A stretch of DNA of 64,000 nucleotides from Amoebophrya sp. A120 (Eukaryota > Protista > Dinoflagellata): contig CAJINV010000005.1 in NCBI GenBank assembly GCA_905178155.1, positions 2,296,054 through 2,360,053 on the forward strand, read 5' to 3'. Shown here piece by piece: positions 39,110 to 64,000 of this stretch. Every line of letters starts with the position of its first letter. Position 1 is the first letter of the stretch. The position numbers and the translations under genes were made by a program. The notes under the pieces were generated by a model. The model was not told the origin of the DNA. It made no database searches and saw only the letters and a list, made by a program, of their open reading frames with translations.

Positions 39110-42100
39110 ATGAGCGACGGCGCATTTATTTCCCCGAGAACTGCAGCGGAGCGGCAGCGGTCGCTTTTCCGAGCGGGTTTGCAGCAGAATAACGGAGCAG
39201 GACCCAGCAACGCCAAAAAGCAGCCGAATATGGTTCCCGGGACCTCCGCAGGTGTAGGCAACAAGATGATGCTGAAGGAGCAGATCGGTGGGTCCTCAAG
39301 CTCCACCGCGACGCGGATAAATCACAACTTCTCCAACCACAAGGACCCCAATTATAACTCGAGTTCTGCTACCCGGCGGAACTACCTCTTGGGCGACAGC
39401 GAGCGGAACCAGCCGCACTACGTCGGGTACAACAAAAATTTCAAGCACTACGACCACCTGATGGAGCTGGAGCGGACCAAGCCCTCCCCCAACTGGCACG
39501 AGCTGTCGTCCTACAAAAAGCGGTTTTTCGTCGGCCAGAAGCTGCACGAATCGCCCCCGGACGAGTGGAAAAGGTTGGACCCAAGGGTCACGAAACGGGT
39601 GCCGGAAATGAGCGAGAAGTGGCGTTTTATCCTATTTAAAAACGTCCCCACCCCATAGTTGTAATGCAAATCTGCATGCTGAAAATGTTTCTCATGCGGA
39701 GCCCGATGAGCAGTTTCTAGTCGTGTTTTGCAATTTGTCATGCTCCAATCAGCATCGTATGCTAGGTCTGTTATGCTGCTGAGCTAGCTCAAACAGCACT
39801 ACACTACGAATCCAAATTTGTGATGCAAAACAGCCAAAACTTGTGGATTTATCTAGCCGATTCCCCATCTTGACTATGGTGTGGGGACATTTTTACTCAG
39901 GATACGTTTAGTCGGTTCCTTTCTAGAAGCTCGGGGGCTGATCAGCTGCCAACTGGAGTCCTTCAACAGCTTCGTCAACCAGGGCATTAAAGACATCGTC
40001 ATGTCTCGGTCTAACGTGGAAATTCGGTGCGACGTGGACCCAAACTGGTACGTGCGCTTCACCGACATCCAGATCGGCCGGCCCCAGATGATGGACGAGC
40101 GGTCGCTACAGGATCTGGACTATCAAATGCAAAAGTGTCTGGGTCTGGAAACTTGTAATGCTAAAATGTGACTGGTGGGCGCACTCCAATACGCAGCCAA
40201 GCATGACAAATTTTTGAGCTGCTCTGGTGTTTCGTTTTCCGCATGGCAAACTGCGTTTCTGCATGACAGACAAGAGGTCCTTTTCCTGCTCCTGCATCGC
40301 AGATTTATGAGTCATGCCAGACAAGCATGACAAACTTGCATTCTTCCAGACCCAGACACTTTTGCAATGTATATGGACGTGTACCCGCAGCAGTGCCGAT
40401 TACGGGACCTGACGTACTCCGCGCCGATTTACGTCTCCTATTACTATTACGCGGGAAAGACCGCGACCAACCCGACGGTGTCCCCGCAACCGCTGCTGCT
40501 TGGCTATTTGCCGATCATGCTGCGGTCGGACAGGTGTCACTTGAGCAAGAAAACCGAGCACGACCTGATGAAGATGGGGGAGTGTCCTTTAGATCCCGGG
40601 GGGTATTTTATCATCGACGGGACAGAAAAAGTGCTGATGATGCAGGAGAACATGAGCAACAACAGAATCATCGTGGAAAAAGCGGACAAGAAGACGCACC
40701 GGCTGCAAGCGGCGGTGACTTCCTCCACGAATGACAACAAATCTCGCGTCATCGTCTGCTACAACGCGCGGAACTGCCTGCACATGAAGCATTCGAAGTT
40801 TCAGTCGTCGGTGAACATTGTGTGTTTGATCAAAGCGATGGGCGTAACCGATGAGCAGGAGATCGTGCAAATGATCGGGAGCGGCGGCATGAGCCGGTTC
40901 GGTAGCAGTGGTGGAGCTGCAAGTTGTGCTAGCAGCGGCGGCTCCGGAGGAGGAGGCGGGAATTCAGGGAAGCGAAGTAACGCGGACCAAAACAACTCAG
41001 GTGGAAAGGATCACGGGCGAACGGAGAGCCAGGCGAGAAGTCGGATTCTCGGGGCACTGCTGCCGACCTTCCAGGAGGCAAAGGATTTGGGCGTATTCAC
41101 CAAGCGGGAAGCGCTTGAGTATCTCGGGAGGCACATGAAGGACAGGTAGAGATGTAAAAAGCTTCAATGAGATTTTCCTCGTGCTGTTCATGTTCATCAA
41201 TGCAACGGTTGCATTTTTGATGCGGCCAAATGCGAAGCGTATGCATGAATTGTCCAAAAGTGAATTTTATCAATACGGTAGTTGCAAATTGTTGACGTGC
41301 CCTTCCCATAAACTCCAAACAGGTTCGTCTCCTCCCGGAGCGCACAGAACCAGCAGCAGAACTCCGGCAACCCCAATACCCCGCACCCCTCGAACAAGGC
41401 CTTGCAAGCCTTCCAGGCCCTGGAAATCGTCCTGTCCCACGTCGCCATGGAGCCCCGGTCCGAGCACACGCCCTTCCTGGCGAAGGTGCGGTATCTTTGT
41501 GTGATGATCCGGCGGATTTTCGACGCGGAGGACAACCCCATGCTGGTGGACGACAAGGATTACTACGGGAACAAGCGCATCGAGCAGGCCAGTTCCATGA
41601 TGTCCATGCTTTTCGAGGACGTGTTCAAAACCCTGAACTCCGAGGTGCGCAAGCGCGCGGACGGGGAGATCGGCAAGCTGGTCCAGAAGCAGAACTACAC
41701 CGACTGCGACGTCTTGAAACGCACGGTGCTGGAGTCGGGGAAGGTGACGCAGACCTTCAAGTACGCGCTGAAGAGCGGAAACTGGAAGATTCAGCGGTTC
41801 CGCGTGGATATGCATTGCAAATATGTCTGGGTCTGGAAGGTGGTAAGTTGTCATGCTGTTTTTGGACTCGAAAAAAAATTGTGTTGCATGACCAGCAAGA
41901 GTGGTGCGATTTGTGCTACACGGACAGGGCATTTCTCATGCGGAAGGTGCATCTGGAAGCCCTCTAAAAGTATGCGATGCTAGGTCATGCATTACAGGCA
42001 TCATGGGTCATGCGAAATATGCATGACAGATCTTGCATTCTCCCAGACCCAGACATTTTTGCATTTGATAGTGGACCGGAGTGGGGTGTCGCAGGTCTTG

Positions 42101-45100
42101 TCCCGGTTCTCGTACATGATCTATGCAATGCAAAAGCATCGTACTAGTATGAATTGCATGACAGATTTTTCCTAGAAGAAAAATGAAATTTGTCATGCAG
42201 TTTTTAGTAAGAAAGCAGATCTGTAATGCTAGACTCGCATTTATTATACGAGTGCGATACTTTTGCAATGCATATGATCGCGCTAGGGTCGATGACCAAA
42301 GTGAAGTCCAACGTGGAGAAGTCGCACAAGATCGCGGGGCCCCGCGCGCTGCAGCCCTCGCAGTGGGGCATGCTGTGTCCGGCGGACACCCCGGAGGGGG
42401 AGCAGTGTGGGTTGATAAAAAACCTGTCCCTCATGGCGACGGTGACTACTGGTCTAGGAGACACGGCCCTGGCAGAAATGAAGGCGTTGATCGAGTTATT
42501 GATAGGAAAAATCCCCCTCCCCATATCGAAAAGGTAGGTTTCCAAAAATTTGTGTTGCGGATTTGAGGTCACAAATCACATCTGTCCTGCAAGAAGGCAA
42601 ACCCAAAGAATCCGCCGCCTTATGGAGGTGATTTGTAATGCTGTTTCACCTACATGGCAGGCCTCTCTTATGCCAAGAGCCTACAACAGAACACCCCTAT
42701 GCAGGCTGAGGCTTTGCCTGTAGTGCCTCGCTGCAAGACAGGGCTGATTTGTGTACACAAATCCTGCAGCAGAAGTTTTCGTTTCAATATGGGGAGAGGG
42801 GATTTCTCATTTTGATACGAGTCCAAGGGTGTCACCATGCCCGACGAGTCGTCCGCAAGCGATCAGCTCTCACCCGACTCGCCGGATACATTATTAGTTT
42901 TCTTCAACGGGCTTCTCCTCGGGTCCTGCCGCGACCCCAACACGTTGATGACGCACATCAAGGAGCTATCCCGTGTAAAAACATCCCCAACCCAGAGTTG
43001 TCATGCAATTCTGCATGCCAAAAAAGTTTCTCATGCGGAGCCCTATGAGAAGCACAAGCATTTTCTGTTCGTGTTTTGGGATTTGTGATGCTAGGATCAG
43101 CATGCTGTGCTAGATCTGTGATGCTTTTGAGCTAGCTAAACAGGATCACACTACGAGGACAAACTTGTCATGCCAAACAACCAAAGCTGTGTGATTTGTC
43201 TAGCAGATTTCCCATCTTGACTCTGGTGTGGGGACGTTTTTGATCAGGATAGGAGCTTCGGCGGCGGGGCGTGATTTTCCAGTTCACCTCGATCTACCAC
43301 CACGAGAACACGAAAACCATCAACATCGCCTGCGACGAGGGCCGGCTCTGCCGCCCGCTGTTGATCGTGGAGAACGGGAAATGCCTCTTCGATCCGAAGA
43401 AGCACGTGCCGTTGCTGACTGGGCGGCACCCGGACGGGACCCGAGCGAAGCGGTGGACCTTCACGGACTTTTTGAACAATGGGGTGGTGGAATTCGTCGA
43501 TGTGAACGAGGAGAACAACCTCCTTATCGCCATGAAGCACGAGGAGCTGACGAAAGACCACACCCATTTGGAGATCGAACCCTTGACGCTCCTCGGGGTG
43601 ATTTCGGGTTTAGTCGCGTACCCGAACCACAACCAGTCCCCGCGGAACACCTACACGTGCGCGATGGGGAAGCAGGCCATGGGCTGCATCGGCTACAACC
43701 AGTTCCAAAGAAGCGACAACGTGTTGTACCTGTTGCACTACCCGCAGAAACCGCTGTGCAAGTCGAAAACGTTAGATTTCGCACAGTACGACCGGTTTGG
43801 CGCGGGCATCAACGCCAGCGTCGCGGTCATTTCCTACAGCGGGTACGACATTGAAGACGCCATCGTGATGAATAAGGCCAGCATCGACCGCGGGTTCGGG
43901 AGGTAAATTTTCACTATAAGCAGCTTCACTACATGAGTAAGAAGTTCTTGTTGCAGGAGGTGACACTTTGAATTCGCTTTAGGTTTTTAGTACTATGCCG
44001 ACGCTGTTTTTAGGTACTTACTATAACAACTTATCTAATTCAAATTCTTTCAACTCCAATGATCTGCATTTTAGGTGTATCGTCATGAAGCGGCACGTTG
44101 GAGTTTGTGACCAAGTCGGCAGCCACAGCGAGGTGGTTGCGCCGCTCCCAAAGGCGTTACTGCAAGACAAGCGAAAAAAACGCGAGAAGCACCGGGTCCG
44201 AAATTTGGACCCGGATGACGGCGTCGTGTGGCCAGGGAGCGTAGTGGGAGATGGTATTTCTAAATAATGCTGAACTTCTTTTTGTCGATTCTTTTTCGAT
44301 GTTATGGGTGCTGCAGATGTGTACTAGCTTGTTTTCCGAGAAGGAAAAAGAGAGGAAGTTGTAGGGTCATCACAAAAATAAATCAAAACAAAAACTGTAT
44401 CACCCCAGGCGACATCATTCTGAACAAGCAGACCCCCGACATGAAAGCGACCACCCCCTTCAATGCCAGTTCCATTACCAACCCGGAGCAGGCGGTGATG
44501 CGCGACAACCCGGTGTGTCACAAGATGCCGGTGGACAGCAAGGACATCATCGACCGCGTTTTGATCACCCACAACGACTATCAAATGTAAAAATGTCTGG
44601 GTCTGGAAGAGTGTAAACTTGTCATGCAGGTTTTCCATGACCCATGAGGTCTGGCATGCGGGACCTAGCATGACAGAGTCTGTGAGGTCTCTGTCATGCC
44701 TATCCTGCATGAGAAACTCCCTCCCAACTTGGCCGAAAGTGGGCAGCTTTTGGCAGTCATGCAACACAGATTTTTGCATGATTCGGCTTTAGCATGACAA
44801 GTTGCAACCTTCCAGATCCAGACACTTTTGCATTCCATAACGACCAGCACCTGCGGATTTTCAAGATGATGTACCGCGACGTATCCTGCCTAAAAACGTA
44901 CCCACACCAGAGTCAGGATGGGGATTTTGCAACACAAACCTAGGAGTTTTGTGAGTCACGCATGACAAGTTGCAGGATGTATTGTAGTGCAGTTTAGCAA
45001 GGGAAGCCGCATAACAAATCCACCTCCTCATCCTGTTCACAGCATCACAAATTCCAAAACACAATGGGAAATGGCTCTCATGGGGATGCGCATTACAAGT

Positions 45101-46195
45101 CTTCCTGTCTTTGCAAGTCTGCATTACAACTCTGGTGTGGGTACGTTTTTACTCAGGATACGACACCCGCCGCCCCGAGCTGGGCGACAAGTTTGCGTCG
45201 CGGCACGGGCAGAAGGGCGTGATCGGGCTCATCGTGCCCCAGCAGGACATGCCCTTCTCCGAAACCGGGTGGTGCCCGGACCTGATCATGAACCCGCACG
45301 GGTTCCCCAGTCGCATGACGGTGGGGAAGATGCTGGAGTGTGTGGGCTCGAAAGCCGCGGCGCTGGAGGGCACGTTCTGCGACGGATCCGCGTTCGGCGG
45401 GACGCCGCCGCAGAAAATCTACTCCACGCTGATCCAGCACGGGTTCGCGCCGAACGGGAAGGAGTTTCTCACCAGCGGAATCACGGGCGAGCCCATGGAG
45501 TGCTACGTCTTCGTCGGACCGATCTTTTACCAAAAATTGAAGCACATGGTGGCGGACAAAGTTCAGGTACAGCAGTTCTTTTCGATCATAAAAACTAAAA
45601 CCATAATTGTCGAAGACGTTTCTTTTCGTTGTCCTCTTCGTTCTTCAGCGACTGGACAACGAACTGGAGAACAAGTTTCAGTTCCGCCATACTTTTCGCA
45701 CGACTTAGGATTATTTTGATATCGGTGTGCTCCGGTGAGCATTTGTTAGGCGGAATCAATGCAACCAATCGGAGGACCGACGAGAAAGATTGGCATCTTC
45801 ACAAGAACTCTTGATATACCGATGATATCACCAAACCTTACTCTCCACAGGCCCGCGCCCGCGGCAAGCTCAACGTGTTAACCCGGCAGCCCACCGAGGG
45901 CCGCGCGAAGCAGGGCGGCTTGCGCATGGGGGAGATGGAGCGCGATTGCTTGATCGCCTACGGGGCGTCGAACTTGCTGCTGGAACGGTTGAACTTTTCC
46001 TCCGACGTGACGGACGTGAAGATCTGCCGCGACTGCGGCCTCTTCGCCGACGCCAACTTCTGCCGCTACTGCGACGAATCCGGGGACAGCAAGGGACGAC
46101 TCTTGGACTGCCGCGTGCCCTACGCCTGCAAACTGCTGTTTCAGGAAATGCAGTGCATGAACGTGGTGGCCAGGATCGGGTTTGAGGAGGTGTAA
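39110..46195 (+). CDS. RPC2: RNA polymerase III second-largest subunit; 8 introner introns plus 4 GT-AG introns (41146-41322, 43903-44074, 44254-44408, 45567-45850)
   Basis: Reconstructed [135 protein letters not shown]. Confidence 0.96.
39628..39904. mobile_element. Introner, family 2 (TATCCT..AAAAACGTCCCCAC TIR)
   Basis: Direct repeat CGTTT; removal gives KWRLVGSF. Confidence 0.93.
40121..40373. mobile_element. Introner, family 1 (TATCAAATGCAAAA.TGTCTGGGTCTGGAA TIR)
   Basis: Direct repeat TGGAC; removal gives [10 protein letters not shown]. Confidence 0.93.
41809..42070. mobile_element. Introner, family 1
   Basis: Direct repeat GTGGA; removal gives [15 protein letters not shown]. Confidence 0.93.
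42122..42274. mobile_element. Introner, family 4 (TATGCA.TGCAAAAG.ATCG.ACT.GTAT TIR)
   Basis: Direct repeat TGATC; removal gives SYMIALG. Confidence 0.93.
42497..42817. mobile_element. Introner, family 3 (TAT..AAATCCCCCTCCCCATAT TIR)
   Basis: Direct repeat CGAGT; removal gives LIESKGVT; same length (321 bp) as 48251-48571. Confidence 0.93.
42967..43251. mobile_element. Introner, family 2
   Basis: Direct repeat GGAGC; removal gives IKELRRRG. Confidence 0.93.
44579..44839. mobile_element. Introner, family 1
   Basis: Direct repeat ACGAC; removal gives [11 protein letters not shown]. Confidence 0.93.
44882..45160. mobile_element. Introner, family 2, opposite orientation to 39628
   Basis: Imperfect direct repeat CGACG/CGACA; removal gives [13 protein letters not shown]. 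Confidence 0.93.
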
Positions 46196-47015
46196 GCTTT
46201 TTGGTGCACAAAGCTGTCGGAGTAAACTTCACTTCCACAAGGGGATCCTGCCAGCGGCAACGCGAAAACGACTTGAAGGCTTTTTTTTCGAGTTCCATCT
46301 ACATCGTTCCAGGTGCGACCTCTTATAGAGGCCCTGAGCTGCGATCTAAATCAGACGACCATCTTCAATCATCATGCAACACGCCGTCAGTTGTGCAGGG
46401 GCGCGACGAATTTTTGTTTCCGCAGCCTTCCACGAGGAAGCGGAACTTCTTGTGTTCTGGATCTAAGTACAACTTTCCGCGCATGATCCTGGTTTGGTAT
46501 ACAACAAGCAAGCAAGGGCGCTGGGCGAAGATTAAGTACCGTAGGAGGACATGGACCACAAGGATCTTCAACATTTCATTGCTGAGGGCTCGTTCCTCGT
46601 CCTCTGTGAATGCAGTTTATTTGATCATTTCACTGACTTTTGTACTATTTACATCGTTACAACTCTCAACTCGTCCACCAGTCTGTGTACAACTCGCCCG
46701 GACTCTTCTTCAGTCGTGAATTAATCTTCAGATTCTGTTGTGCTGTTATTTCTTCATTTCCAGTCCGCTTGTTTGTTGAAGATGAAGTAGCATATCTACT
46801 TAACTCAGATTGATGTAGTGTCCTTTGTGCTTTTTCAGTTACGTCAACCGTGATTTTTTCTTTCTGCCGACTTGATGTTTAGAGCTAGAGCAGTCATGTG
46901 ACTGTAGTAACCTCTTGACAAAAAATAACAAGGGACGAAACAACTTTTCCGTACTTCTGTCACCACTAAGTCCCAGAACCCACAATCTATCTGGAAGAAA
47001 AACTCTCAGAACACC

Positions 47016-50000
47016 ATGTCGTCTTCCGCTTCTACTCTGAAACCCCCCATTGTCATCGACACCGGCACGGGCGGCGTGAAAGCGGGGATTGCAGGCGACA
47101 AATTTCCCGCGCTCTATTTCCCGACTTGCGTCGCGCGGGCGAAAACACGGCTGGATCAGAACCACAACGGGGGCCCTCAAGGTCCTGGTGCGACGTCTCA
47201 ACTACCTCGGGTTGGGACAACGACGAGTGGCGGCTCCTCGTCTTCCAGTTCTTCGCCCGATTATGTGATGTACGAGAGCAAGACGGCCCTTTTCGCAAAG
47301 CTGCAGGCCTGTCCATGGATCAACCAGGAATTTTTGGAAGAGTTGAAGAAGTCGCATAGTGCCGATGATGAGGACGACAATTTGATGCCGCTAGAAGACC
47401 ACGAGGACGCGCCTGGTCGTCCTGGGGGACCGAGGAACAACGATGCCGTCTTTGGTGGAGCAGGGCCAGAACGTCCATCAGCACCCATGCCGATGAATGT
47501 CGACGGAAGTAGCGGAACATCACACAACTACTACACTGAGCAAAGCGACCCGCGCGTGGCACCCGGGCAGAAAATAAGGAACACGTCAAATAACCCTGCG
47601 TCGGTGTCTCATTTGATGAATCGACTGAGTTTGAAGACGCCCGATTCCGAGCTGAACGACCCACAGAATATGCTGGTGCATGTGGGCAGCGGCGGCGGTA
47701 CTATGACTTCGAGCGGTGCAGCGGGTGGACGCGAAGACGGCGGACGCGATGATGAGCAGGAAGATCTTCGTAGCCGCGAGGACCACATGGACGTGGAGCA
47801 TCAGAACGAGCAAGAGGAAAATAACGCTGGACCACAATTACAGGCTGCTGCGGACGAGGAAACAAGCAAGATCATCATTGGTCCGCGGCTGTGGTCGTCC
47901 CGGTGGCACTCGTTGAACACGCACGACTTGAGCTACCCGATGAAGTATCAAATGCAAAAATGTCTGGGTCTGGAAGATTTCTAGATTTGTCATGCATATT
48001 TTCCATGAGCCTTGATGTCTGTGATGCATGCCGTAGCATCACAGATTTTGAAGGGGCTTTGCGATACCTCTACCGCATGAGAAATGCCCTCTCCACGTAG
48101 GACACACAAACCCGACCCCTCTTGCTGGTCATGCAATACAAATTTTTTTAGAATCCACAAACAGGATCACAAGTTACGACCTTCCAGACCCAGACATATT
48201 TTCATATGATATGAAGGAGGGCCAGGTGGACAACTGGGACGACCTGGAGATATCGTAAAGAAAAATCCCCCCTCCCCATATTGAAAACGCATCCGTCTGA
48301 TAATTTGTGATGCACATTTGTGGCCTCAAATCTTGTCTGTCTTGCAAGAAGGCAAGTCCAGAGAGCCCCCTGCATTTTGCAGGCGGTTTGTGATGCTGTT
48401 GGGCTTAGAGCATACACCTGTGTCATGCTAGGCGCCTACGCCAAAACCTCTCGGCCGAGGCTTGACATATGCCTGCAGTCCTCTACTGCAAGACAGATCT
48501 GATTTGTGTACGGAAATCCAGCATCAGAAACTTCGTTTCGATATGGGGAGGGGGGATTTTTCCTTCTGATAGGAGAAGCTCTGGGACTACTGCTTCCACG
48601 AGCTGGGCATCGACCCCAGCGAGCACACCATCGTCCTCACGGAGCCGGTGCTGAACAACCACAAAAAGCGCGAAACCTATCAAGTGCAAAAGTGTCTGGG
48701 TCTGGAAGGTTACCAGGTTTGCGTTTGTCATGCATATTTTGCATGACCCAGGATTGTTTGTGATGTATGCCCTACCATCACAGATTTTCAGAACCCTTCC
48801 TGATGCCTATCCCGCATGACAAACGCCCTCGTCCCCGCGTAGCACAAACTGGGCTCCTCTTGCTGGTCATGCAATACAGATTGCTTTAGATTCCAAAGTT
48901 TGCATCACAAGTTCCAACCTTCCAGACATCCAGGGATATTTGCAATGCATAAAACCATGGTGGAGATGATGTTCGAGCGGTACGGGTTTAAATATCCTGA
49001 GTAAAAACGTCCCCACACCAGAGTTGTCATGCAGATGCGCAATGACAGGAACATTTGTAATGCGCAGCTCCATGAGAGGAATTTCCAGTCGTGTTTTGGA
49101 ATTTGTAATGCTGTAAACAGGATGTGAGAATGGCTTTCTCATGCAGCTTATCTTGCCAATCAGCACTACACTGCAGAGGGAAACTTGTCATGCACAGCTC
49201 CCAAAACTTGGAGGTTTGTGTTGCTAGATTCCCATCTTGACTATGGGGTGGGGACGTTTTTGCTTAGGATACTAAAGCTGTGAACATCAGCGTCCAAGGG
49301 GTCCTGTCGCTCTACAGCGAGGGCATGCGGACCGGGGTGGTCGTAGACAGCGGGGACGGGTGCACGCACATTGTCCCGGTCTACGACGGCTTCGTGCAGC
49401 CGGCACTGGTCTATCCAAGAAAAAAAACGTTGTTAATAGTGTAAACTTGTGATGCGCAACATTCAAGCTGATTGCGTCTGTCATGCTTGGCATGCATCGC
49501 AGGGCTCATTCAATGGCGTTTTCGCGTAGTATCTGCGCATGACAGGTTTTTGCTGTCATGCGAGAGATATTTGTCATGCTAATCTTCCAAGAAAGTTACA
49601 CAATGTTTTTTCTTGGATATGGTCCAGCGCATGAACATTGGTGGGCGGCACGTGACGCAGCAGCTCCAGCAGCTACTAACCCGGAACAACCTGGACGTGT
49701 TTGGCGCGTTCTCCAGCCCGGTGCTGCAGGAGCTGAAGGAAAACAGCTGTTACATGGCGTACGACCTCGAGAAGGAAATGCAACTGCACCAGAACACCAC
49801 CGCCATCGAGCAGGTCGTCGCGTTGTATGACCACCGGACCAGCAACGCGCTCATATGTTGGGACGCTCAAACGTTACAATGATTGATCGTTGTCGCATTA
49901 TTTTGTATTGTGCAAGAAGACTAGCAAAAGCGAAATGGGAGAGCTTGGGCGTGGTTTATCGCTGTTTAGCGGGTCGAGCGCAACTTGTCATGCGAAGCAG

Positions 50001-50999
50001 CTTGATTGGGTTGGGGGCTGAACCTGATGCTGATTCTGCGTGACAAATCATATAAGAACAGCGACCAATGTAGTAACGTTTGACTATGCCATAGCTCACC
50101 CGGGTGCGCGTAGGCGAGGAAAGGTTTCTGGCGCCGGAGATTTTGATGAATCCACGGATGTATCAGGTATGAAGATTGTGTGTGGTTTTTGTATTCCGTG
50201 TTATGCACGCACCCTCCCGGAGCAGGACAGATCAGCATCAGTGTATTTATATATAGTAAGTAGATGCATTACACTAGCAGCCTGATATTGGGTACTGTGC
50301 ATGACAATTCGCAATATCCAGGAAATGAACTTCGATTACGGGCACCAAAACGCGGGCGTCGCGGAGTTTTTGTACCAAACGGTGATGGACGCCGACGTGG
50401 ACCTTCGCCGGACGTACTTCAGCGCCATTCTCTATCCTAGGAAAAAACGGCTTCACTGTAGTAAACTTGTTGAGAAAGATGAAGATGAACAGGAAAGAAC
50501 TACAGCAGGGAGAAGGCCACGACAGCACACGAGGACTTGTTGTCTTGCTACAAATTATCCATCAAAACAGCGCAGCTGTTTTTCTGCCCCTGTATTTCCC
50601 CATTGGTAGGGAGGCATGCTGGCAGTTTTTTTTTTCTATAAATCACGAAAAACAAACTAACTTGGCATGCGAGAAGTGGTGTTGCAGCAAATCTATCATC
50701 GCAGTGAAGAAACTGTTTTTTCGTGCGATATCTTTTTGTCCGGGGGCAATACGCTCTTCCCAGGGTTCAAGTCCCGCCTGGACCGGGAATTGCGGCAGCT
50801 CTACAAGGACCGCGTTGGCGGCCGCATGGTGTTCAAGGTCGAGGATCCGGCGCGGCGGAAATTTGCGGTCTTTCTAGGCGCCAGTTTCCTGGCGGAAACT
50901 GCCTACTGTGGAAACGACTACAGTAGGTTTTTGAATCAGGCCGAGTACGAAGAAGGCGGCGCCGCGGGCATTCACAGCTACTGCATGCCGCAATCGTGA
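47016..50999 (+). CDS. ARP2: Actin-related protein 2-like; 7 introner introns plus one GT-AG intron (50167-50321)
   Basis: [109 protein letters not shown]; the last two resemble Arp2 more than actin or Arp1. Confidence 0.85.
47946..48211. mobile_element. Introner, family 1, opposite orientation to 41809
   Basis: Direct repeat TGAAG; removal gives [11 protein letters not shown]. Confidence 0.93.
48251..48571. mobile_element. Introner, family 3
   Basis: Direct repeat GGAGA; removal gives DDLEKLWDY. Confidence 0.93.
48678..48951. mobile_element. Introner, family 1
   Basis: Direct repeat AAACC; removal gives [11 protein letters not shown]. Confidence 0.93.
48993..49271. mobile_element. Introner, family 2
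   Basis: Imperfect direct repeat TTAAA/CTAAA; removal gives [11 protein letters not shown]. Confidence 0.93.
49412..49619. mobile_element. Introner, family 5 (TATCCAAGAAAAAA TIR)
   Basis: Direct repeat TGGTC; removal gives [11 protein letters not shown]. Confidence 0.92.
49854..50093. mobile_element. Introner, family 6 (TATG..TCAAACGTTAC TIR, decayed)
   Basis: Direct repeat GCTCA; removal gives [13 protein letters not shown]. Confidence 0.88.
50433..50730. mobile_element. Introner, family 5-like, decayed direct repeat
   Basis: TIR TATCCTAGGAAAAAACGGCTTCACTG vs CAGTGAAGAAACTGTTTTTTCGTGCGATA; flanks TTCTC/TCTTT; removal gives SAI(L/F)LSGG. Confidence 0.85.
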
Positions 51000-51700
51000 A
51001 GACGTGACTCGCTCATGTACTTACATCGATGAATAATAGAGGGCGACGCGCACGCACTTTGTTTTTTGTCAATCAAGGACCTAGTTTATTCCTCTGGTCG
51101 CCAATCCACCACAAGGCAACAATGGCGACGCAGCTGTCCAAATAAAGTGCCTCTTCTCGTATTAATTCTACGTGCAGCACTTTTTCGGCGCAAATACGTA
51201 CAACAGTGAAGACGTAAGTCCGCTCATTGCGCCGGCCGTGTGTTCTCTCTAAGCAGTGCGTACTAAAAGCAACTTGGACATATACAATAAACTGAGATAG
51301 AAATAAATCAGGAACAGCTCATCTTCGTGGACCAGATCGCCATCGCTATAGATCGTGCGTAGGGTCGTGGTCAGCACCAACAGTTACAGTTTCAGCGAGG
51401 CCAAGACGCAGGTCATCAAGTTCCGATAAAATGTAAGGGTCATCGTGAGTGGGGGGTTTTCGTGTTTCGTCGGTATCCAAGAACTTCGAAATCGTCATCG
51501 TCTTCATCTTGATACTGTCGCTGGGAATTTTTATCGTTGAACGACAAGGAGAGTCGTACTCGTATGTTTCAACGTATTCTGATCCTTTCGTCGTGGGCGA
51601 CCTTGTTTGTCAATTTGGAATAAGTTTTAGATTTAGTATTTGCTTGTGTAAAACTACCTGACACCAGTCCCCTTTCCCTCACGAGACGTGTGCGAAGAGC

Positions 51701-53374
51701 ATGGGCGGCGTCTGCAACGATTTTCCGTTTTCGCAGCGACGCGGTCGCGTTTTTCCTCACCCCGCTTCCAGCTCGATGGTCCACTTTCGAAACAAGGTTG
51801 ATGTCTTGCGCAGTCCACCGCACCACGTCCTTGTTGGCCTGCTGCTCCTAGGTGCTACAACTACGAGCAACACGACACCAGGGACGATCCAGGTCGCAAG
51901 TGCGCTAAATGTTGTGATGGATCTGTCGGAAGCCAAGGGCACGGCGTCGATGTTGGCCACGAAAGAGGAGAAGGAGGTTGTGCAGCACACACTGCAGGAA
52001 GAAGAGCGAGAGGAGGTCGTGGAGAACAAACATGCGCAGGAAAACGAGAAGGAACTGGCGACGCAATCCGAATCGACGAAGCCGGATCAACATGACAGCA
52101 GTGCGGTGGCTCCTTCACAACCAGGACCCGTCGCGGCGACCACTGACGCCGTCGTGAGCTCGGGAAGGTTGTTCGGAGAGGGCGGCGAAACGACGCTGGA
52201 GCCAAGCAAGTTGCAGTCCTACCTCCCAGACCCGACGAAGCGACGGAAGTTTGAAATGCGGCGGACGAAGAATTGGTCACCGAGTACGAGCATCAACGAT
52301 TACACCCTGTACGAGGCTGATTGTCTCGCTGAGCTGGCGGATCACTCACATTCTCCATCGGCCGAAGACGAAGCGACCTGCGAATGGTTGCGGATTCGGT
52401 CGGACGCCATCGGTGGTATCGATCCCACAAAGCTCAACTTTCACGTGATCATTCCCGCGCTCGCGTCCGAACAAAATCCGACTGCCGGCATCGTGATGTT
52501 CGTAATGCGTACGTTCGTTGCGCTCGACCTCGCTGTTGAGGAAAGGCTAAAACTACAACCACCGGAACAGAGCGCGGCCGCTTTTACTACCACCACGAAC
52601 CCGACAGCGACACAGAACGCCGAAACTCTGACCAGCGGGGATACGGCCCGCGCAAGTACTCCCTCGTCTTCTCCTACTCAGCCGCAGGTGCAACAACCTG
52701 CCCAGGCTACTGCTGACCTGGGGGTGCAACTGTTTGCACAGAGCATGCCCGTTTACGACTTTTGGTCGCTTCACCCGTCATTTGCGGGGCAGAAAGGAGC
52801 CCGCTCTGCGGACGCTATCGCCAGTAACAATCTGCTGGAGGACCTGCGCCCGCCCGGGGCCAGTACGTTTTACCGATTTGGTTTCCAGACCATTTCAGGC
52901 TGGCGATTGGGACAGCATGAGCTTACCGCCGACGAAGGTCTTTTTGTGCCCTACACCGCCAAAATGAATGCGCGCACGCTCGAGGGAGCAGAAGAGAAGG
53001 GCATTCGGGTCGAGCAGCAAATGCGGATGCACAACCCGGGAATGGCGAACCCGAACCTGCGCGGCGCGACGCCGCCGGGTGGCGACCAGACGCACCTGGG
53101 GGGCAAGCAGTTGGACTGGCGCTATCGTGTCCGCGTCGCCGGGCGCCTGGCGGACAGGAGAAAGCTGTCGAAGAGGTTCAGCGGGCTCGACCGTCCCACG
53201 TACGAGATCAAGGGACGGAAGAGGGCGTCCGACGGCCAGGAATCCGAAGGCGAGCTAGATGAGGAGGTCACGGCCGCGAAGATGGAGTACGTCGGCGGCC
53301 AAGACTGGACGAAGAATGTCGGATATCAAAGAGTGCTGAAAAAAGCCCCGGCTCCAGAATCGATGAAAATATAA
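51701..53374 (+). CDS. Hypothetical protein with N-terminal hydrophobic segment
   Basis: 557-aa ORF with GC-rich codon usage; VLVGLLLLG near the N-terminus; no recognised family. Confidence 0.6.
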   Translation: MGGVCNDFPFSQRRGRVFPHPASSSMVHFRNKVDVLRSPPHHVLVGLLLLGATTTSNTTPGTIQVASALNVVMDLSEAKGTASMLATKEEKEVVQHTLQEEEREEVVENKHAQENEKELATQSESTKPDQHDSSAVAPSQPGPVAATTDAVVSSGRLFGEGGETTLEPSKLQSYLPDPTKRRKFEMRRTKNWSPSTSINDYTLYEADCLAELADHSHSPSAEDEATCEWLRIRSDAIGGIDPTKLNFHVIIPALASEQNPTAGIVMFVMRTFVALDLAVEERLKLQPPEQSAAAFTTTTNPTATQNAETLTSGDTARASTPSSSPTQPQVQQPAQATADLGVQLFAQSMPVYDFWSLHPSFAGQKGARSADAIASNNLLEDLRPPGASTFYRFGFQTISGWRLGQHELTADEGLFVPYTAKMNARTLEGAEEKGIRVEQQMRMHNPGMANPNLRGATPPGGDQTHLGGKQLDWRYRVRVAGRLADRRKLSKRFSGLDRPTYEIKGRKRASDGQESEGELDEEVTAAKMEYVGGQDWTKNVGYQRVLKKAPAPESMKI

Positions 53375-53472
53375 ATAGTGAGACTTTGCAGTGCGAAATA
53401 ACGGAAATAGACTATACTTCTGAAAAGAGGTACTGCGATGGCAGGACTTCCACTTCTTATGCGAATTTCATT

Positions 53473-53856
53473 ATCGATCCTTGTATGTCGCTATCGATAT
53501 CGTCTTTCGTGCCCCGAGTGAGCTTCTCCTTGCCTTCTCCCTCCTATTCCCATTTTCCTTTCTTTAAGCACGTTGTTTTCGTGGTTTTATGGTCGGTGAA
53601 CCGGTACCCCTGTCCGCCATAAATTTCTATGTCACGTTAAACAAGCGAGCACTCCCTTACACTTTCTCTTCCTTCTGCTTCATAGGGCAGCGAGACTGTG
53701 TTCGGTGAGACGGCAGGGGCTGTAGTGCTATCCTCTTTTTCAATCCCGAGTGATTTTCGGTGCGCGGTTTTGTTGTTGCGAGTGAACCTGAGCTGTCCAA
53801 ATTCCTGTTTCTGTTCTCATGCAAAAAAGGCCATTTGCATGCTTCAAAAACTTCAA
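53473..53856 (+). mobile_element. Left-truncated copy of stack unit U3 (non-LTR/SINE-like) with 18-bp target duplication
   Basis: TCTTATGCGAATTTCATT at 53455-53472 and 53857-53874. 53565-53856 aligns with 30425-30718 and has the same right end (CATGCAAA..TTTGCATG hairpin, then TTCAA). Confidence 0.85.
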
Positions 53857-53989
53857 TCTTATGCGAATTTCATTCATGAGCCATAGTCACATAGTATGAT
53901 TGGTATGATTCATCTAATACAACAAGCGTTGTGCCAGTGCCACGGGCTCTTCTCAGCTTGATAGCGAAGAATGGCACTTTGGAGGCTGG

Positions 53990-54266
53990 TATGCAGTGCA
54001 AATATGCCTGGGTGTGGAAAGTTGTAGTTATGCAAATTTTATGATACAACAGTACAGCAACACAAGATCAAGAGCCTCCAATTCCAACACACGCATAACA
54101 AGTTTTTGAGTTACGCCAGATGCCGATCGCGTTTTGGCATGAGAAACAAGTACAATAGAACTGTTGCACTGTTGCGCCGTACACTGGACAGATATTTCGG
54201 TCCTCTTATCAGCCAAGCTTGACAAGGCTGGCAAGTTTCCAAACCCAGATGTGCTTGCAGTGAATA
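53990..54266. mobile_element. Introner, diverged family 1-like
   Basis: Direct repeat GCTGG; TIR TATGCAGTGCAAATATGCCTGGGTGTGGAAA / TTTCCAAACCCAGATGTGCTTGCAGTGAATA. Confidence 0.85.
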
Positions 54267-54316
54267 GCTGGAAGCAGATCATCACTATCGAGCCCGGACA
54301 CGACCCGGTAACCATT

Positions 54317-54863
54317 TATCTTGGGTGAAAGCGTACCCACCACCCTTAGTCAATCTGAAATTTGGGACGCGCGCATGACAAAGTTGTATGGTCCATTGCG
54401 CAGTCGTGATCGCATCGATCAGAAATCCGTTGTCTTATGCTTTCCAAATTCCAATAGAATTTAGAAAATGCCTTCGATGGGGAGCCGCGTGAGACATGTC
54501 CGAAACATGCTACATTTGCATGTTTAGGGAGTTAGGTAATTTCCAGTAGAAGTGCTAGTAGATTTGCATTTTGACAGATTTGCATGTGTACAAATAAAGG
54601 CTTCCCTGGGTGGCCGCCATCTGCGGCCGTTCGTACATGGGGAGGCAGAGGGCGCCGCACTTCTGTTTATCAATCAATCAATCGTTCTCATCTAAAGGAT
54701 CTTGGGAGGCGATGAGAGCAGGTTCTGCGCCTCTGCTCTAAGCTTGTTTCCTTCACTTGCCACAGAAGGGGGACTTCTTAACTTATGAAGAAACCTAGAA
54801 CAAAGTAACTAGTAAAGCTCGATTAAATTTTGGGCGGTGGGTTCTATGCTTTTACTCCGGATA
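54317..54863. mobile_element. Introner, diverged family 2-like, enlarged to 547 bp
   Basis: Direct repeat CCATT; ends TATCTTGGGTGAAAGCGTACCCACC / GGTGGGTTCTATGCTTTTACTCCGGATA. Confidence 0.8.
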
Positions 54864-56403
54864 CCATTGCCGCTATGTGCGCGCTGAAAGAAAACGAGAA
54901 CGTCAGGGCCAACTGGATCCAGTTATCGCATAGCGAAGTATGATGTAGCATATCATACATGTGATGCGATCGCAATAAAGAATGAATAAAATAAATACAA
55001 GTGCATGTACGGTCGTTTCCTCCATATGCGGGACACCAAAAGTTCATGTTTGAGGCTGAGTGGTGTTGAATTGAATGCTGACTGATTTTGTTGAGGTTAG
55101 AAAGTGTTGTGTATCGTGGCGCTTCGCCGTCGTTTCAGTGTTCAGGGAACGGTGCATTTTTACTCATCATGATATGTTACTTGCTCTTTGTTGTGTCATA
55201 TCGGCGAAACGAAAACGGTGTCCTTGGTTTTGCTGCTGGGTATGCCACCCTTCCGGTTGTGGCGGTACCAATTGTCACGTGTTTCCACCTCAACATGTCG
55301 ATGTGAGCCAATTTATTGAGCATTGTTCGACACCAGCATCTCGTGATTTCAGCTGCGTGACAGAGCAATATCATGAGCATGACCGCTGCGGCGCAGAGAG
55401 CGCATGTGCCTAGAATGAAAGATGATGATGATAGTTTTCATTTTGTGGTGGGGACTCTTTTCATCATGATCAAGCATTGCGGCGACGGCGGCGTTGTCTC
55501 GCTGAAATGCATGCCACGAACCCCTCCCTTTTGATCCCTGAATGTCGTTGCGGGTGGAGTACGTATGTTTTGTTTCTGTCTTTATGAAAATAAATGCAAT
55601 GTCAAGATAAAGATCAACTTTGCGAGATTTAGCCGCGCTGGTGGTCCGCTGCATGTGACAGAAGTGTAAGACTGTTCTTTGTACTTCAACACTCATCTGA
55701 CAAATTACGCGTAGAAAGAACTGTACTAAAGCATTTCATTGCGATGTACCTTGCTCATATCTGTCTTTCAACATCGCAGCGTGTTTTTCCTGAAGTTTCT
55801 ATGGTTTCTCTTTGCAACCGTCGTTTCATCATCGAGAAGATTTTACAGAAAAAAATCGTTGCTTTTGATTATTTTATCAGTTACAGCTTCTGTGCGATTG
55901 TCATTGTGATTCGAATTTCAGTTGTCCTATTTGGTTGTTGTGCTTCTACTTCGCGTAGAATGTAAAATTAAGATTAACTTTAAAACTTCTCAACTGTTGG
56001 TCATGGAAATCGATCCCGCACACACGTAACACGATCGCCCCAAATGAAGCCTGTTCCATGATGAAAATGACTGAAGGTTCTGACTCAAATCGACCCCGTG
56101 ACATGCTGATGAAATAGCTAACTACGAAGCGGATCTAGACTCTGGAATGTGTTGACATCTGGTGAGAATGATGCGAGAATCTTGATGAACCTGATTGAAC
56201 CAAACCTACAGGATGTAACGCAGCAAGAGACTTGCGTCACTTGCTTGCTTACTTGCAATTGAGAGAACTCATTGAAAAGCTGTTGATAACGAGCTCAGTG
56301 GAGCAAGCGTGTGTAAGTGTGTGTGAGTGTTCTCAAGTCCACTAACACTACGCTACGCCTTGAGACTCAAACTGGCTCTTCTAGTCAGATAAGTACTCAC
56401 AAA

Positions 56404-57589: not shown

Positions 57590-57716
57590 CTAGATGAAGG
57601 AGATGTTTATATCTCGGAGTATGGTCGTTGTTTTCTGAACTTCGAGAATTTAGAAGAATTTGACTCAAATTATTCTAGCTGTTTTATTGCACAGACCAAG
57701 GACGAAGTGAGCTTCC

Positions 57717-60700: not shown

Positions 60701-61412
60701 ACTGACAACGAAGGAGCAGGGTCTGTCGTATAGTCCGGAGATTGAGGAAGAATTCAACAGAATCTACAGCAAGCTACTGCCCGAAGGGAGAGACTTGCCT
60801 GATGTGAGTCTGTTTTCGGATGCTAGTTTTGCGAACTGTTGCAAGACCATGCGAAGCACTAGTGGTAGCATTATGTACTTCCGCGGTTTCCCGATCTGTT
60901 GGCGTAGCAACCGGCAGACCGTGAGGGCGTACTCCACGGCGGAGGCGGAGTATATAGCTGCTTCCGACACTATTGTGCTGAGCGAGCAGAATGACTTTAC
61001 AGAGTTCTTCAAACCTCTACCCACTGTCATGGTGGAGAAGCAGAATGGCTTATCTCCCTCCCTGGATGATGCCATATTGTGGATCGACAACCAGTCCGCG
61101 ATAACTACAGCTAAGAGCACAGACAACAAACCGAAATCGAGGCACTACGCACTGCGATATCTCCGCGTGAGAGACGCAGCGAGCCAGATCATGTTCTGCC
61201 CGACCTACCTAATGAAGGCAGACGGTCTCACGAAGCTCGAGTGTAGTGTGCCGCAGAGACGCTTACTCTTGCACCATATTGATAACCCCGACCCTAAGTC
61301 TTTTATTTGTGACTCCTCTGACGATGAGGATGATTTAGACACGTTTATAGAGGGGAATCACAAGGGCAAGGCTAAAGTAGGCTATACTTATTCGATTTAT
61401 TTTGGTTTCTAG
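57717..61412 (+). CDS. pol: Copia pol (protease-integrase-RT-RNase H)
   Basis: LVDSCA, HRRFGH..CPEC, MDFA..RRDSE..NGTCERF, LYGLKDAPRLWY, YVDDNL, FSDASFA..STAEAEY..IDNQSA..ADGLTK. Confidence 0.95.
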   Translation: MVDSCANKYLSRHKSDFIDISSNVCRINGTAGARDGFVGKLKENALGLPYGVYFKHLPRDIDRILPWLGEDNLSDRGWDLNYNSSGGSLVNRESGQMLPIKNHERLTLPVLGCDLFVVGLRGQATRDTTEDIACITIEESIASCHLTRLEQHRRFGHFHVDGLDVQCPECDKAKGARSSHAKERDTSNYKPQPLKLLAMDFAVGIKPVSIRSRTCVLVVICEAIKKCFCVPLKLKSDCVEVLEELIKGIRQNYALTLEDKVVWFVRRDSEPVLGSDSMTKVMQSLRVGDAPAVPYNPEQNGTCERFMRTIFGAVRAMLVNVDKRLWCYSVEYAAACWDRLPHKYSKMPEYDGKTPAEILDERTGRNSSKVGTRMLRRFGCLVYFREQVKKGEVHEAPEGGVNVVAPKLSAPFRRGVFLGLCPKSSGWRVGTYVTDGRAAAGHRWMEYSTIDVKFREEYLVKNIEDLVPNSKGIYVECDAIEALPSGAPCAPSLPCVGLIKRAEHRLGVDVSEHTGRQPDGPEETLVVKSLDREDDPGQIHPEPEGVKPEEGNLDDHPTHSSLSSPRKASPSPARIVAGNRNSKPRGRGRPKGRKDKKKRARRAKKELAELRKDASAFAAAIAAQDDREEGEEFLDVQCYLTTSAKLDPARCKDSVEWNAATNKEDCRLEAYKVWEPATDEELATAKQVLPIAILLTEKRDGTKKARAVVLGNLDRSGELDTFAPVVSHAANRLLLAAAAADGDDVIPFDLDSAFLNALLDRDVFCRLPPIWAKKHGAEIVKLKKALYGLKDAPRLWYKKYEEVLTKLGWEPCPSAPGLWKKPGLEFPGKFLKLAVYVDDNLITGPPTGSELAGELAEILHHVKGRMIDVELVPEFNSVSKKFDFLGSVVYYNWNLRTVRIVMSEYISKICKKFHVSEAGKPVHSPNFDESELAKEVEGAKVIEGFPLREVVGSLQWAATTCRVDIVVPVATVARYVGKPATRPVVNACKKILKYLLTTKEQGLSYSPEIEEEFNRIYSKLLPEGRDLPDVSLFSDASFANCCKTMRSTSGSIMYFRGFPICWRSNRQTVRAYSTAEAEYIAASDTIVLSEQNDFTEFFKPLPTVMVEKQNGLSPSLDDAILWIDNQSAITTAKSTDNKPKSRHYALRYLRVRDAASQIMFCPTYLMKADGLTKLECSVPQRRLLLHHIDNPDPKSFICDSSDDEDDLDTFIEGNHKGKAKVGYTYSIYFGF

Positions 61413-62539
61413 AGGGGATAGCTAGTTCACCACAGCGCGCTCAGGAGGGGAGTGTGGTAGGACGCTATCCAGATTAGCACCACCGCCGCAGCGATTGAGG
61501 AGGGGTGTTGGTCATGGAAATCGATCCCGCACACACGTAACACGATCGCCCCAAATGAAGCCTGTTCCATGATGAAAATGACTGAAGGTTCTGACTCAAA
61601 TCGACCCCGTGACATGCTGATGAAATAGCTAACTACGAAGCGGATCTAGACTCTGGAATGTGTTGACATCTGGTGAGAATGATGCGAGAATCTTGATGAA
61701 CCTGATTGAACCAAACCTACAGGATGTAACGCAGCAAGAGACTTGCGTCACTTGCTTGCTTACTTGCAATTGAGAGAACTCACTGAAAAGCTGTTGAAAA
61801 CGAGCTCAGTGGAGCAAGCGTGTGTAAGTGTGTGCGAGTGTTCTCAAGTCCACTAACATCAACAGAAATGATACACAAGAAGTAATTCCTTTGGGATTTA
61901 TGTACACCACAAAAATTTGAAAATTTAATGGCATCAAGATCACCAGATGAGACAAGAGGACACTGCTTTGCGGTAAACAAAAAGGTGGCAAGCGAGAGCA
62001 GGAGGCCCTTCATTTTACAGCTCAAGAAAAGTTTTCCTGTTCTCGGTGCTCTTGGCCTTTTCTCATGTTTTCTCTCGGGTGTTGTGTGCAGCTTCTTGAC
62101 GGGTCTACCAACCAAGGATACAACGCAGGTAGATGGATAATTAAGTGGGGCTTTGTGGATGATCCTTTCACCGCCGGGTGCGGGACAGCTACGTGGTCGC
62201 GCAAGATCTGGCTTGGATTTCGTGCGCGGAACAAGTGAATATGCTGGATCAGTGTTTGTATTTGAATTTGTTTCAGAGTATGACTACAAAGCGGACAACC
62301 GCGCAAAAATTCTCAACGAACAAGTTGGCGGCCAGATCTTTCTATTAATCGACATGATCAGCTCTGCTTATCTGCAGGCACTATCGGTGGACGAAACACT
62401 CTTCGATCTTCGGGAGTGGTCCAGGAAAAGCGAATTGTTAGAGTTGTGCCGATGCAAAGTACGAAGCACTTTTTACTCTGGTTGCTTGTATGAAATGAAA
62501 ACAAAAGAAAATTAGTACTAGATCATACCGACGAAGACG

Positions 62540-64000
62540 ATGTCCGCAACTCCTGTGTCGTCCCCAGGCTACGCCGACGAGATCCTGGCCCAGGAGCCCT
62601 CGTTTTTCTCGAAGTTTTGCCTCGACGGGCTGCTGGCCCTCGCGGATTGTGTCGTGTTGCTCGGGCTGCTGGCGTATCAACTGTAAAAATGTCTGGGTCT
62701 GGAAGATTCAGACACTTGTCATGCACGTTTTGCATGGGGATGGGCCCTGATGTCTGTGATGCATGCCCTAGCATCACAGATTTTTTGAGAGCTTCTTGAT
62801 GCCTATTTCGCATGACAAATGCCCTCTCCGCGTAGCAAGAATTACACTGCCTTTGGTACTCATGCAATACAGATTTTTTTGGAATCCAAATGCAGCATCA
62901 CAAGTTGAATTCTTCCAGACCCAGACATTTTTACATTTGATATGGCGCTGATCTCCCAGCTCCGCCGCACCAAGTCGTTGCTGGGACTGTCTCTGCAGAC
63001 GATCGTGGCGCTGACGGTCACTATCAACTGCAAAGCTGTCTGGCTCTGGAAGGATGCGAGCTTGTGATGCGTGTTGCGGATCATACAAAAATCTGTGTTG
63101 CGTGACTTGCAAAAGGTGTCCATTTCTGGCCATGCTGAGAGGGCATTTCTCATGCAGTATAGGCATCACCTTCTCCTTCACCAAGGGGCTGCAGAACCTG
63201 TTATGCTAGGCCCTACATTCCAGACTTGGTGGAACTTGGAGAAACTGCATGACAAATCTCGGAAGACTTACCGTTTGTAGCTTTTATAAAGAAATGGGAC
63301 GCCCTGCCCTTAGCCTTCCAACATGACAAATCGAAATCTCGGAATCTTCCAGACCCAGATTTATTTGCACTCGATAGTCACGCGGGTGCTGCATTTTGCC
63401 TCCTGTGTTCTCGGTTTCCACTTTGACGCCACCCGGTTTTTGCTGCTGGACTTGGCGTATGAACTGCAAAAGTATCGTACTAGTATAAATTGCAATACAA
63501 ATTTCCTCAGCATGAGAAATAAAACTTGTCATGCGGATCCACCTTAACAATAGAATTTGTAATGCATAAACGCGATTAGTACGAGTACGATGCTTTTGCA
63601 CAGGATATGGCGATCGTGGTGGCCCTGGTATTTGTCTGCCTCCAGGTGTTCGAGTTTTTCCCGACCTACCAGGGACTATCAAATGTAAAAATGTCTGGGT
63701 CTGGAAGGTTGGAACTTGTCATGCTGAATCTGAATCATGCAAGAAATCTGTGTTGCGTGATTACCAACAGCCGTCGTTTTTTACCAAGTTGAGAGGCAAT
63801 TTCTCATGCAGGATCGGCATGCTAGAGATCTCACAGAGTTTGTCATGCTAGGCGCTGCATTCCAGTCCTCATGAGTCATAGAAAACCTGCATGACAAACC
63901 TGGTAACCTTCCAGACCCAGACATTTTTACATTTGATAGGGACTCGCGGTGGACAAATTCGGCCGGTTTTTGCACCCCAACGACCATGCGCAGTGTGCCT
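62540..64000 (+). CDS. ER lumen protein-retaining receptor (ERD2/KDEL receptor)-like, 3'-incomplete, 4 introner introns
   Basis: Reconstructed LADCVVLLGLLALISQLRRTKSLLGLSLQTIVALTVTRVLH...FFPTYQGLAVDKFG matches the ERD2-family pattern KS..GLS..T.....R.L / TY....D.F. Confidence 0.75.
62675..62942. mobile_element. Introner, family 1
   Basis: Direct repeat TGGCG; removal gives GLLALISQ. Confidence 0.93.
63022..63376. mobile_element. Introner, family 1 (longer variant)
   Basis: Direct repeat GTCAC; removal gives LTVTRVLH. Confidence 0.9.
63458..63607. mobile_element. Introner, family 4
   Basis: Direct repeat TGGCG; homologous to 42122-42274; removal gives LDLAIVVA. Confidence 0.93.
63677..63938. 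mobile_element. Introner, family 1
   Basis: Direct repeat GGGAC; removal gives TYQGLAVDKF. Confidence 0.93.

Follow-up and report, generated by a model that had tools for sequence, protein, structure and literature searches.

Introner elements in genes of Amoebophrya sp. A120 are absent from RNA-like contigs together with 5 nt and may be cut at a fixed register

The window analyzed here is a stretch of 64,000 nucleotides of the Amoebophrya sp. A120 genome (GenBank assembly GCA_905178155.1, contig CAJINV010000005.1, positions 2,296,054 to 2,360,053, forward strand). It contains genes for RPC2 (the second subunit of RNA polymerase III) and an Arp2-like actin-related protein, a fourth gene, and the 5' part of an ERD2-like gene. 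All four are interrupted by introners, short elements with terminal inverted repeats (TIRs) that run from TAT to ATA between 5-bp direct repeats. These elements have the anatomy of transposons, lie in both orientations and at unbiased targets, and are lost from RNA-like contigs exactly with 5 nt of flanking sequence, whether or not the repeats match. They are named below by their first coordinate (Table 1).

The initial annotation, made from the sequence alone, had listed 21 TAT...ATA elements with inverted ends. A strict scan of the window (TAT..ATA, exact 5-bp flanking repeat, TIR of at least 60% identity over 25 nt) recovered 17 of them, all within 39628-63938, and none in each of 20 shuffles. 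A relaxed scan with inspection added the other four: 44882-45160 and 48993-49271 (repeat 4/5 each), 50433-50730 (2/5), and 49854-50093 (5/5, weak TIR). Three more degenerate elements were found beyond this list (53324-53963, 54924-55200, and 55266-55471), bringing the total examined to 24. The TIRs are ~25-30 nt long. Among the 21, 18 have perfect direct repeats and three have mismatched ones; the annotated 5-bp repeats held for most sites. The claim that they share no sequence was nearly true, as TGGCG is present twice. The estimate of about six TIR families was fair, since we counted four multi-copy families (A, 4 copies; B, ~9; C, 2; D, 2) plus singletons.

The ends are not those of U2 spliceosomal introns, GT-AG (or GC-AG). 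As the initial annotation had stated, GT-AG is missing: none of the 24 elements reaches it in any of six sliding registers. Many lengths are likewise not multiples of three (element + 5 in 10/21). Families A and B are inserted in both orientations inside plus-strand genes. With TIRs, a target-site duplication (TSD) of constant length and no coding capacity, the elements fit the description of miniature inverted-repeat transposable elements (MITEs) or other non-autonomous TIR transposons. DNA-run depth over them rises to ~1e5 compared with ~27 on exons, a measure of depth and not of copy number. The TIR pattern had no match in viral contigs, and Rfam gave no match in the window. The sub-terminal motif TGTVATGC and its complement occur 37 and 22 times in ~7 kb of elements, against 3 and 10 times in the other 57 kb. 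This motif could be a transposase site or, as GCAUGAC, a branch-point mimic.

Further copies were collected by scanning metagenomes for the terminus of family B. This yielded 136 stretches, which reduced to 134 loci; the orthologous region was not among them. A TIR-only search of these loci gave 416 distinct elements, of which 313 had exact 5-bp repeats, 1 had a 4-bp repeat and none had a 6-bp repeat. The coding strand could be assigned confidently for 207 elements, and among them the repeat (target) bases were unbiased. GT-AG was reachable in 4/163 perfect repeats. Family B was found 25 times in sense and 24 times in antisense orientation. No transposase was found in elements up to 1200 bp in the 134 loci, and two long perfect-repeat elements inspected (of the four over 500 bp) had no open reading frame (ORF) of 90 codons. 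Two long family B elements with perfect repeats, L027:3862-4492 (631 bp) and L042:6001-6972 (972 bp), carry non-coding internal insertions; one stretch of the former also occurs in window element 63022.

The window belongs to strain A120 itself. An RPC2 exon was 100% identical to deposited A120 protein P0001, and the first ERD2 exon was likewise 100% identical to an A120 protein. In the parts of Farhat et al. 2021 (PMC7789003) used here, A120 introners are described with inverted repeats that open with TAT, followed by seven variable positions and then AAA. The same parts report 29,850 copies in many families, direct repeats that measure 3-5 nt (given as 5 bp in the Fig. S19 legend), no dinucleotide signature, and RNA validation. 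The window elements agree in strain, TAT-N7-AAA inverted ends, direct repeat, non-canonical ends, dispersed families, and removal from transcripts. The TAT-N7-AAA ends are seen both in the window termini and in the logo of the 416 further elements, with a looser fit in the window singletons. Thus, the window elements are the A120 introners of Farhat et al., a known class in its own type genome. The initial annotation was right to recall such repeat-bounded non-canonical introners from Amoebophrya; the class and its odd ends were published for A120 in 2021, and their observation here is not new. Two differences from those parts of the paper concern the cut, described as variable there and likely in one register here, and the hosts: poorly conserved genes are favored there, whereas the hosts here include RPC2 and Arp2. 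The TIRs measured here extend to ~25-30 nt.

Other systems resemble the A120 introners in part. In the rows and passages used from Gozashti et al. 2025 (PMC12130899; 20/58 rows of sd07), most A120 families are classed as TIR DNA elements whose superfamily is unknown, and their ends are mainly non-canonical. The TSD calls there range from 2 to 5 bp with boundary modes that vary by family, whereas we found 5 bp (313/416 exact); no fixed register appears in those rows and passages. According to passages of PMC11282704, the nonconventional introns of euglenids likewise combine TSD-like repeats and non-canonical junctions with TIRs through which the two ends of the intron pair, and a MITE origin has been proposed for them. 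They are described with a pyrimidine/purine consensus at the junction, which was not evident in A120 elements, and with CAG/CTG pairing and circular products. The non-canonical introns of Fritillaria borealis, in the same passages, are transposon-derived with TIR and TSD as well, and an adapted spliceosome is reported to splice them. Their ends are dominantly AG-AC or AG-AT at a preferred target, unlike the unbiased target in A120. The IS3EU and GingerRoot elements described in passages of PMC10045372 share TA..TA termini, and their integrase-related transposase recalls the ORFs resembling integrases that have been reported from a TIR family of A120. Their usual TSD is 6 bp, a length seen in 0/416 elements here compared with 313 at 5 bp, and membership in this group was rejected despite the TA..TA ends.

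Removing each element with one repeat rebuilt the genes, as had been claimed. Together with the removal of four GT-AG introns it gave the 1388-aa P0001 exactly; the ERD2 part became the start of P0121, and the Arp2-like ORF stayed open. Retaining any single element introduced a premature stop (8/8 in RPC2, 7/7 in the Arp2-like gene, and 4/4 in ERD2). Reading frame by itself would also permit removal of element + 2 or + 8; the length of element + 5 is fixed by RNA and deposited proteins. Aligned over 933 columns with a protein of Amoebophrya AT5, a strain with introns predicted to be canonical, the spliced RPC2 showed 71% identity and stayed collinear through the six junctions covered by that protein. 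No intact uninterrupted paralogue was found, with a single A120 RPC2 in the top 120 matches. Elements 53990 and 54317 had been placed outside genes; they in fact lie inside the fourth gene with three more degenerate elements. Five ordinary GT-AG introns are also present in these genes (four in RPC2 and one in the Arp2-like gene).

RNA evidence was taken from contigs of four runs, all of one sample in one study. Their RNA status was guessed, none is on record as RNA, and contigs show the majority form only. They behave as mRNA in that they leave out the GT-AG introns and become sparse or vanish between genes. For 15 of the 21 elements, joints or offsets show that the RNA-like contigs lack the element and exactly 5 nt more. 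The tabulated joints equal element + 5 nt at 11/11 sites, and one more joint spans 53324 and 53990. Contig offsets in RPC2 cover five more elements, with expected and seen values of 891 and 891 and of 384 and 384; over the four elements at 41809-43251 they skip 1041 nt, the sum of the four element + 5 lengths. For the remaining six of the 21 (39628, 40121, and the four in ERD2), the support is agreement with deposited proteins. In two raw-read RNA runs the matching reads numbered 8 and 82; every one was partial and fell on elements. These results bear out the earlier view that the genes are functional: they are expressed and spliced. At 49854-50093, a frame-shifting element in the Arp2-like gene, spliced and retained forms occurred at similar contig depth (19.4 vs 11.3; 5.9 vs 7.1).

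All of this RNA evidence is presumably complementary DNA, and direct repeats with hairpins are a known setting of reverse-transcriptase template switching (passages of PMC4176328). The junctions could then be artefacts of switching between repeats, with real transcripts keeping the elements or being handled otherwise. We consider this very improbable. The junctions were exact where the repeats match at 2/5, 2/5 and 0/5 positions; repeat homology is therefore not needed, which counts against template switching. Each retained element would truncate RPC2 or Arp2, and the collinearity with the AT5 protein argues in the same direction.

Perfect repeats leave the position of the cut ambiguous, and only mismatched repeats can place it. 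We defined k as the number of left-repeat bases removed. Six sites gave a range of k from RNA (Table 1); at 44882, for instance, the left repeat lacks its final base in the RNA (k>=1). A seventh site was locus L040, where homologue P0127 fits k = 0-1. Only k = 1 is common to all seven, which puts the 5' cut 1 nt upstream of TAT and the 3' cut 4 nt downstream of ATA. Under random cuts, the chance of a common register was 0.006 for the seven sites, 0.035 without 55266, 0.021 for RNA only, and 0.125 for RNA only without 55266. The 3' end of 55266 had been set by family alignment D9 before the RNA was seen, and its 5' end was defined afterwards. The seven sites indicate that the register is likely fixed. 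We searched for more sites: at locus L028 the sole deposited protein match covers one exon, and when 84/96 flanking exons were scanned against Pfam, a single family stood out clearly, enoyl-CoA hydratase (L018). Its position, which we took to be too variable, was not used for the register.

Alternatively, the cut could slide in the repeat from element to element, and the agreement at k = 1 would be a small-sample coincidence. The informative sites number only seven, the most conservative set gives P = 0.125, and the parts of PMC7789003 used here describe splice positions at 1-5 nt from the repeat. On the other side, k = 1 is allowed by 7/7 sites and bracketed from both sides at four, and the 3' end of 55266 was fixed in advance. 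A sliding cut is thus quite unlikely in our judgment. Published boundary counts were not taken as support for either view, because they depend on how the aligner slides within the repeat, and they neither confirm nor refute the register. They include Table S4 of PMC7789003, where 9/9 predominant A120 motifs start with N-T, fitting k = 1, and 8/9 also end with A-N. They also include the annotated A120 families of PMC12130899, whose six largest entries among the 20/58 rows have AG ends at frequencies of 24-34%; at k = 1, AG ends are expected in 11/163 perfect repeats. No published fixed register was found in the literature searched; Fig. 3 and Figs. S19-S25 of Farhat et al. lay outside its scope and may show one implicitly. 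The cut register is a modestly supported new addition to a known class.

The register also bears on whether the elements leave at the DNA level. Their transposon anatomy and the single repeat copy left behind recall the internal eliminated sequences of ciliates, so that RNA might be made from repaired templates in some nuclei or stages. The DNA joints seen are those among the ones listed, which leaves room for a minor excised form. Nevertheless, DNA-run contigs at depth 22-32 pass from exon into element unbranched, one element is both retained and removed in RNA-like contigs, and the asymmetric 1/4 register follows the strand of the gene although the element itself is symmetric. DNA excision is accordingly a highly unlikely explanation.

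With k = 1, each intron starts with N-T-A, and 5/5 ordinary introns here start with GTA. U+2 and A+3 of the donor would then hold for 24/24 elements, with k inferred from seven sites. The initial annotation had proposed that removal is guided by the element and not by terminal dinucleotides. The occurrence in both orientations, the unbiased targets and the dispensability of matching repeats agree with the first part. The second part needs one refinement: the likely cut retains two bases of the ordinary GUA donor, U+2 and A+3, which come from the TAT of the element, so the terminal sequence is not irrelevant. We propose, with a probability of roughly 0.55, that short non-autonomous TIR elements between 5-bp duplications, precisely absent from RNA, are cut by a relaxed spliceosome at a fixed 1/4 register. 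Such a spliceosome would be relaxed for G+1 and the 3' AG and would still use U+2/A+3. In either orientation the intron would start with N-U-A, as TAT would supply half of the organism's GUA donor. The acceptor would be set by distance, four bases past the trailing ATA, with no need for AG. What is recognized at the ends might be a stem in the RNA or sequence motifs (TAT-N7-AAA and the sub-terminal TGTVATGC). Of the 21 elements, the one with the least end pairing predicted, 49854, is the element seen retained as well as spliced. Since 1 + 4 equals the 5-bp duplication, any insertion that makes such a duplication, at any site or in either orientation, would be removed without a scar, and essential genes could tolerate many.

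The spliceosome is our best guess for the catalyst. It is suggested by the likeness of the donor, by the inventory in the parts of PMC7789003 used here (nearly all spliceosomal proteins and U2/U4/U5/U6 reported; U1 snRNA not found), and by apparent intermediates. One of these is 55266, an intron GT...GC. Another is the GT-AG intron 50167-50321, where judging from its sequence an introner apparently landed in a CAG/G site and became canonical. A universal splice code, N + TAT...ATA + NNNN, seems fairly probable, in which a spliceosome apparently without U1 would read U+2/A+3 and a 4-nt acceptor ruler and ignore G+1 and AG. If so, this would be a splice-invisible transposon family, and one rule would explain tens of thousands of 'consensus-free' introns. 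The phrase 'no consensus' would turn into a precise rule that makes ~30,000 gene-model junctions placeable, and the register would predict which U6, U5 or Prp8 contacts changed. The register also speaks against template switching, the objection commonly raised to introns of this kind.

Removal at the RNA level could also proceed without a spliceosome. A structure-specific endonuclease with a ligase, or separate euglenid-like machinery, would cleave the stem formed by the TIRs so as to leave overhangs of 1 nt and 4 nt. Strong end-to-end pairing was predicted in 22/24 elements, compared with under 1 pair in 4/5 ordinary introns. The lack of AG and G+1 and the failure to find U1 snRNA are in keeping with this, and euglenid introns yield full-length circles in the passages used from PMC11282704. 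We nevertheless hold it to be unlikely. The register keeps U+2 and A+3 of the GUA donor, and the stemless 55266 is cut at the same register. Intron 50167 resembles an element turned GT-AG, which suggests one continuum, and 15% of canonical A120 introns share the repeat layout in the same parts of PMC7789003. TIR mismatches showed no sense-strand G-U excess (226 G-U vs 215 A-C in 211 elements), and hence no sign of selection for RNA pairing.

Several points weigh against a relaxed spliceosome that cuts paired ends at a fixed register. The register comes from seven sites only; one contig of one run supplied three of them, and the RNA runs share one sample and a guessed status. In the parts used here, Farhat et al. 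describe where splicing occurs with respect to the hairpin as variable. A test of k by codon usage and GC on 37 mismatched repeats was without power (207/405 flanked elements passed the strand filter). For a role of pairing, the retention of 49854 is one case, among contig pieces listed only; the missing G-U excess speaks against it, and 55266 is removed without end pairing.

Table 1. Host genes, introners and related introns of the window; k, number of left-repeat bases removed, with the range allowed by RNA
Feature	Coordinates	Strand	Direct repeat	k	Remarks
RPC2 (RNA polymerase III second subunit) gene	39110..46195	+			1388 aa; 8 introners and 4 GT-AG introns; Rpb2 Pfam domains
Introner, family A	39628..39904	.	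CGTTT/CGTTT		Removal matches P0001; no RNA joint among those listed
Introner, family B-like	40121..40373	.	TGGAC		Removal matches P0001; no RNA joint among those listed
Introner, family B, reverse orientation to 47946	41809..42070	.	GTGGA		RNA contig offset
Introner, family C	42122..42274	.	TGATC		RNA contig offset
Introner, family D	42497..42817	.	CGAGT		RNA contig offset
Introner, family A	42967..43251	.	GGAGC		RNA contig offset
Introner, family B	44579..44839	.	ACGAC		RNA contig offset, 384 expected and 384 seen
Introner, family A reversed	44882..45160	.	CGACG/CGACA (mismatched)	1-5	Joint 44876>45161 in 4/4 runs; conserved T1141
Arp2-like actin-related gene	47016..50999	+			635 aa, intact ORF after splicing; 7 introners and 1 GT-AG intron; PF00022
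Introner, family B	47946..48211	.	TGAAG		RNA joint skips 271 (element + 5), 4/4 runs
Introner, family D	48251..48571	.	GGAGA		RNA joint skips 326, 4/4 runs
Introner, family B	48678..48951	.	AAACC		RNA joint skips 279, 4/4 runs
Introner, family A	48993..49271	.	TTAAA/CTAAA (mismatched)	0-4	RNA joint skips 284, 4/4 runs
Introner, single in window	49412..49619	.	TGGTC		RNA joint skips 213, 3/4 runs; 18 matches in other loci
Introner, out-of-register TIR	49854..50093	.	GCTCA		Joint in 2/4 runs, read-through contigs in 3/4
GT-AG intron resembling old introner	50167..50321	+			Starts with G/TAT; sub-terminal TGACAA; ATA shifted from the register by one base; RNA joint
Introner	50433..50730	.	TTCTC/TCTTT (2/5)	1-2	Joint 50430>50734 in 4/4 runs
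Fourth gene	51662..55501	+			~611 aa ORF; first exon without Pfam match; five elements in 3' part; one RNA-like contig joins exons
Degenerate 640-bp introner	53324..53963	.	TCGGA/GCGAA	0-1	Joint 53323>54267 around 16-nt micro-exon, 1 contig
Introner, diverged family B	53990..54266	.	GCTGG		RNA joint 53323>54267 shared with 53324
547-bp introner, family A-like ends	54317..54863	.	CCATT		Joint skips 552, 1 contig
Degenerate introner	54924..55200	.	CCAGT/TCGGC (2/5)	1-2	Joint 54921>55204, 1 contig
Highly degenerate element TAC...ATC	55266..55471	.	0/5	1 (exactly)	Intron GT...GC; joint 55264>55476 unambiguous, 1 contig
ERD2-like gene, 5' part, runs off window	62540..64000	+			PF00810; 4 introners; spliced part is start of deposited protein P0121
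Introner, family B	62675..62942	.	TGGCG		Supported by P0121 match
Introner, family B with internal insertion	63022..63376	.	GTCAC		Supported by P0121 match
Introner, family C	63458..63607	.	TGGCG		Supported by P0121 match
Introner, family B reversed	63677..63938	.	GGGAC		TIR 30/30; supported by P0121 match

The host genes have some features of their own. RPC2 carries an N-terminal extension of ~150 aa (39110-39620). The last exon of the Arp2-like gene had Arp2 as its best PDB match, and another exon tied actin and Arp2. Its protein contains a ~240-aa acidic low-complexity insertion after the first motifs (47016-47940). The micro-exon at 53969-53984, ~21 nt including one repeat, lies between two elements of the fourth gene and is included in the RNA-like contig.

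Introners are unevenly distributed in the window. None lies in 1-39627 (39.6 kb), compared with ~1.3 per kb in 39628-64000 outside a retrotransposon. The relaxed scan gave two matches in 1-39627, inside the 0-2 range of shuffles, and a generic TIR scan with any termini, run without shuffle control, gave no second element class there beyond scattered matches. The density changes abruptly near 39.6 kb, marking a sharp domain boundary, and the pattern is the reverse of the published trend toward poorly conserved genes (non-canonical introns in the parts of PMC7789003 used here). Most long ORFs in 1-39627 are without a Pfam match.

The retrotransposon, at 55995-61858, is a Copia-type element with long terminal repeats of 353 bp that have 3 differences, a 5-bp duplication (TCAAC) and an RVT_2 domain. 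Its gag-like frame ends with TGA followed by CTAG, and the downstream frame is open for ~54 codons; this copy has frame breaks. TGA with CTAG is a read-through context, and the sequence hints at gag-pol stop read-through. Elsewhere in the window, 32222-33616 gave a weak DnaJ match, and an amino-acid transporter gene (PF01490) with ordinary-looking introns lies at 24988-27956.

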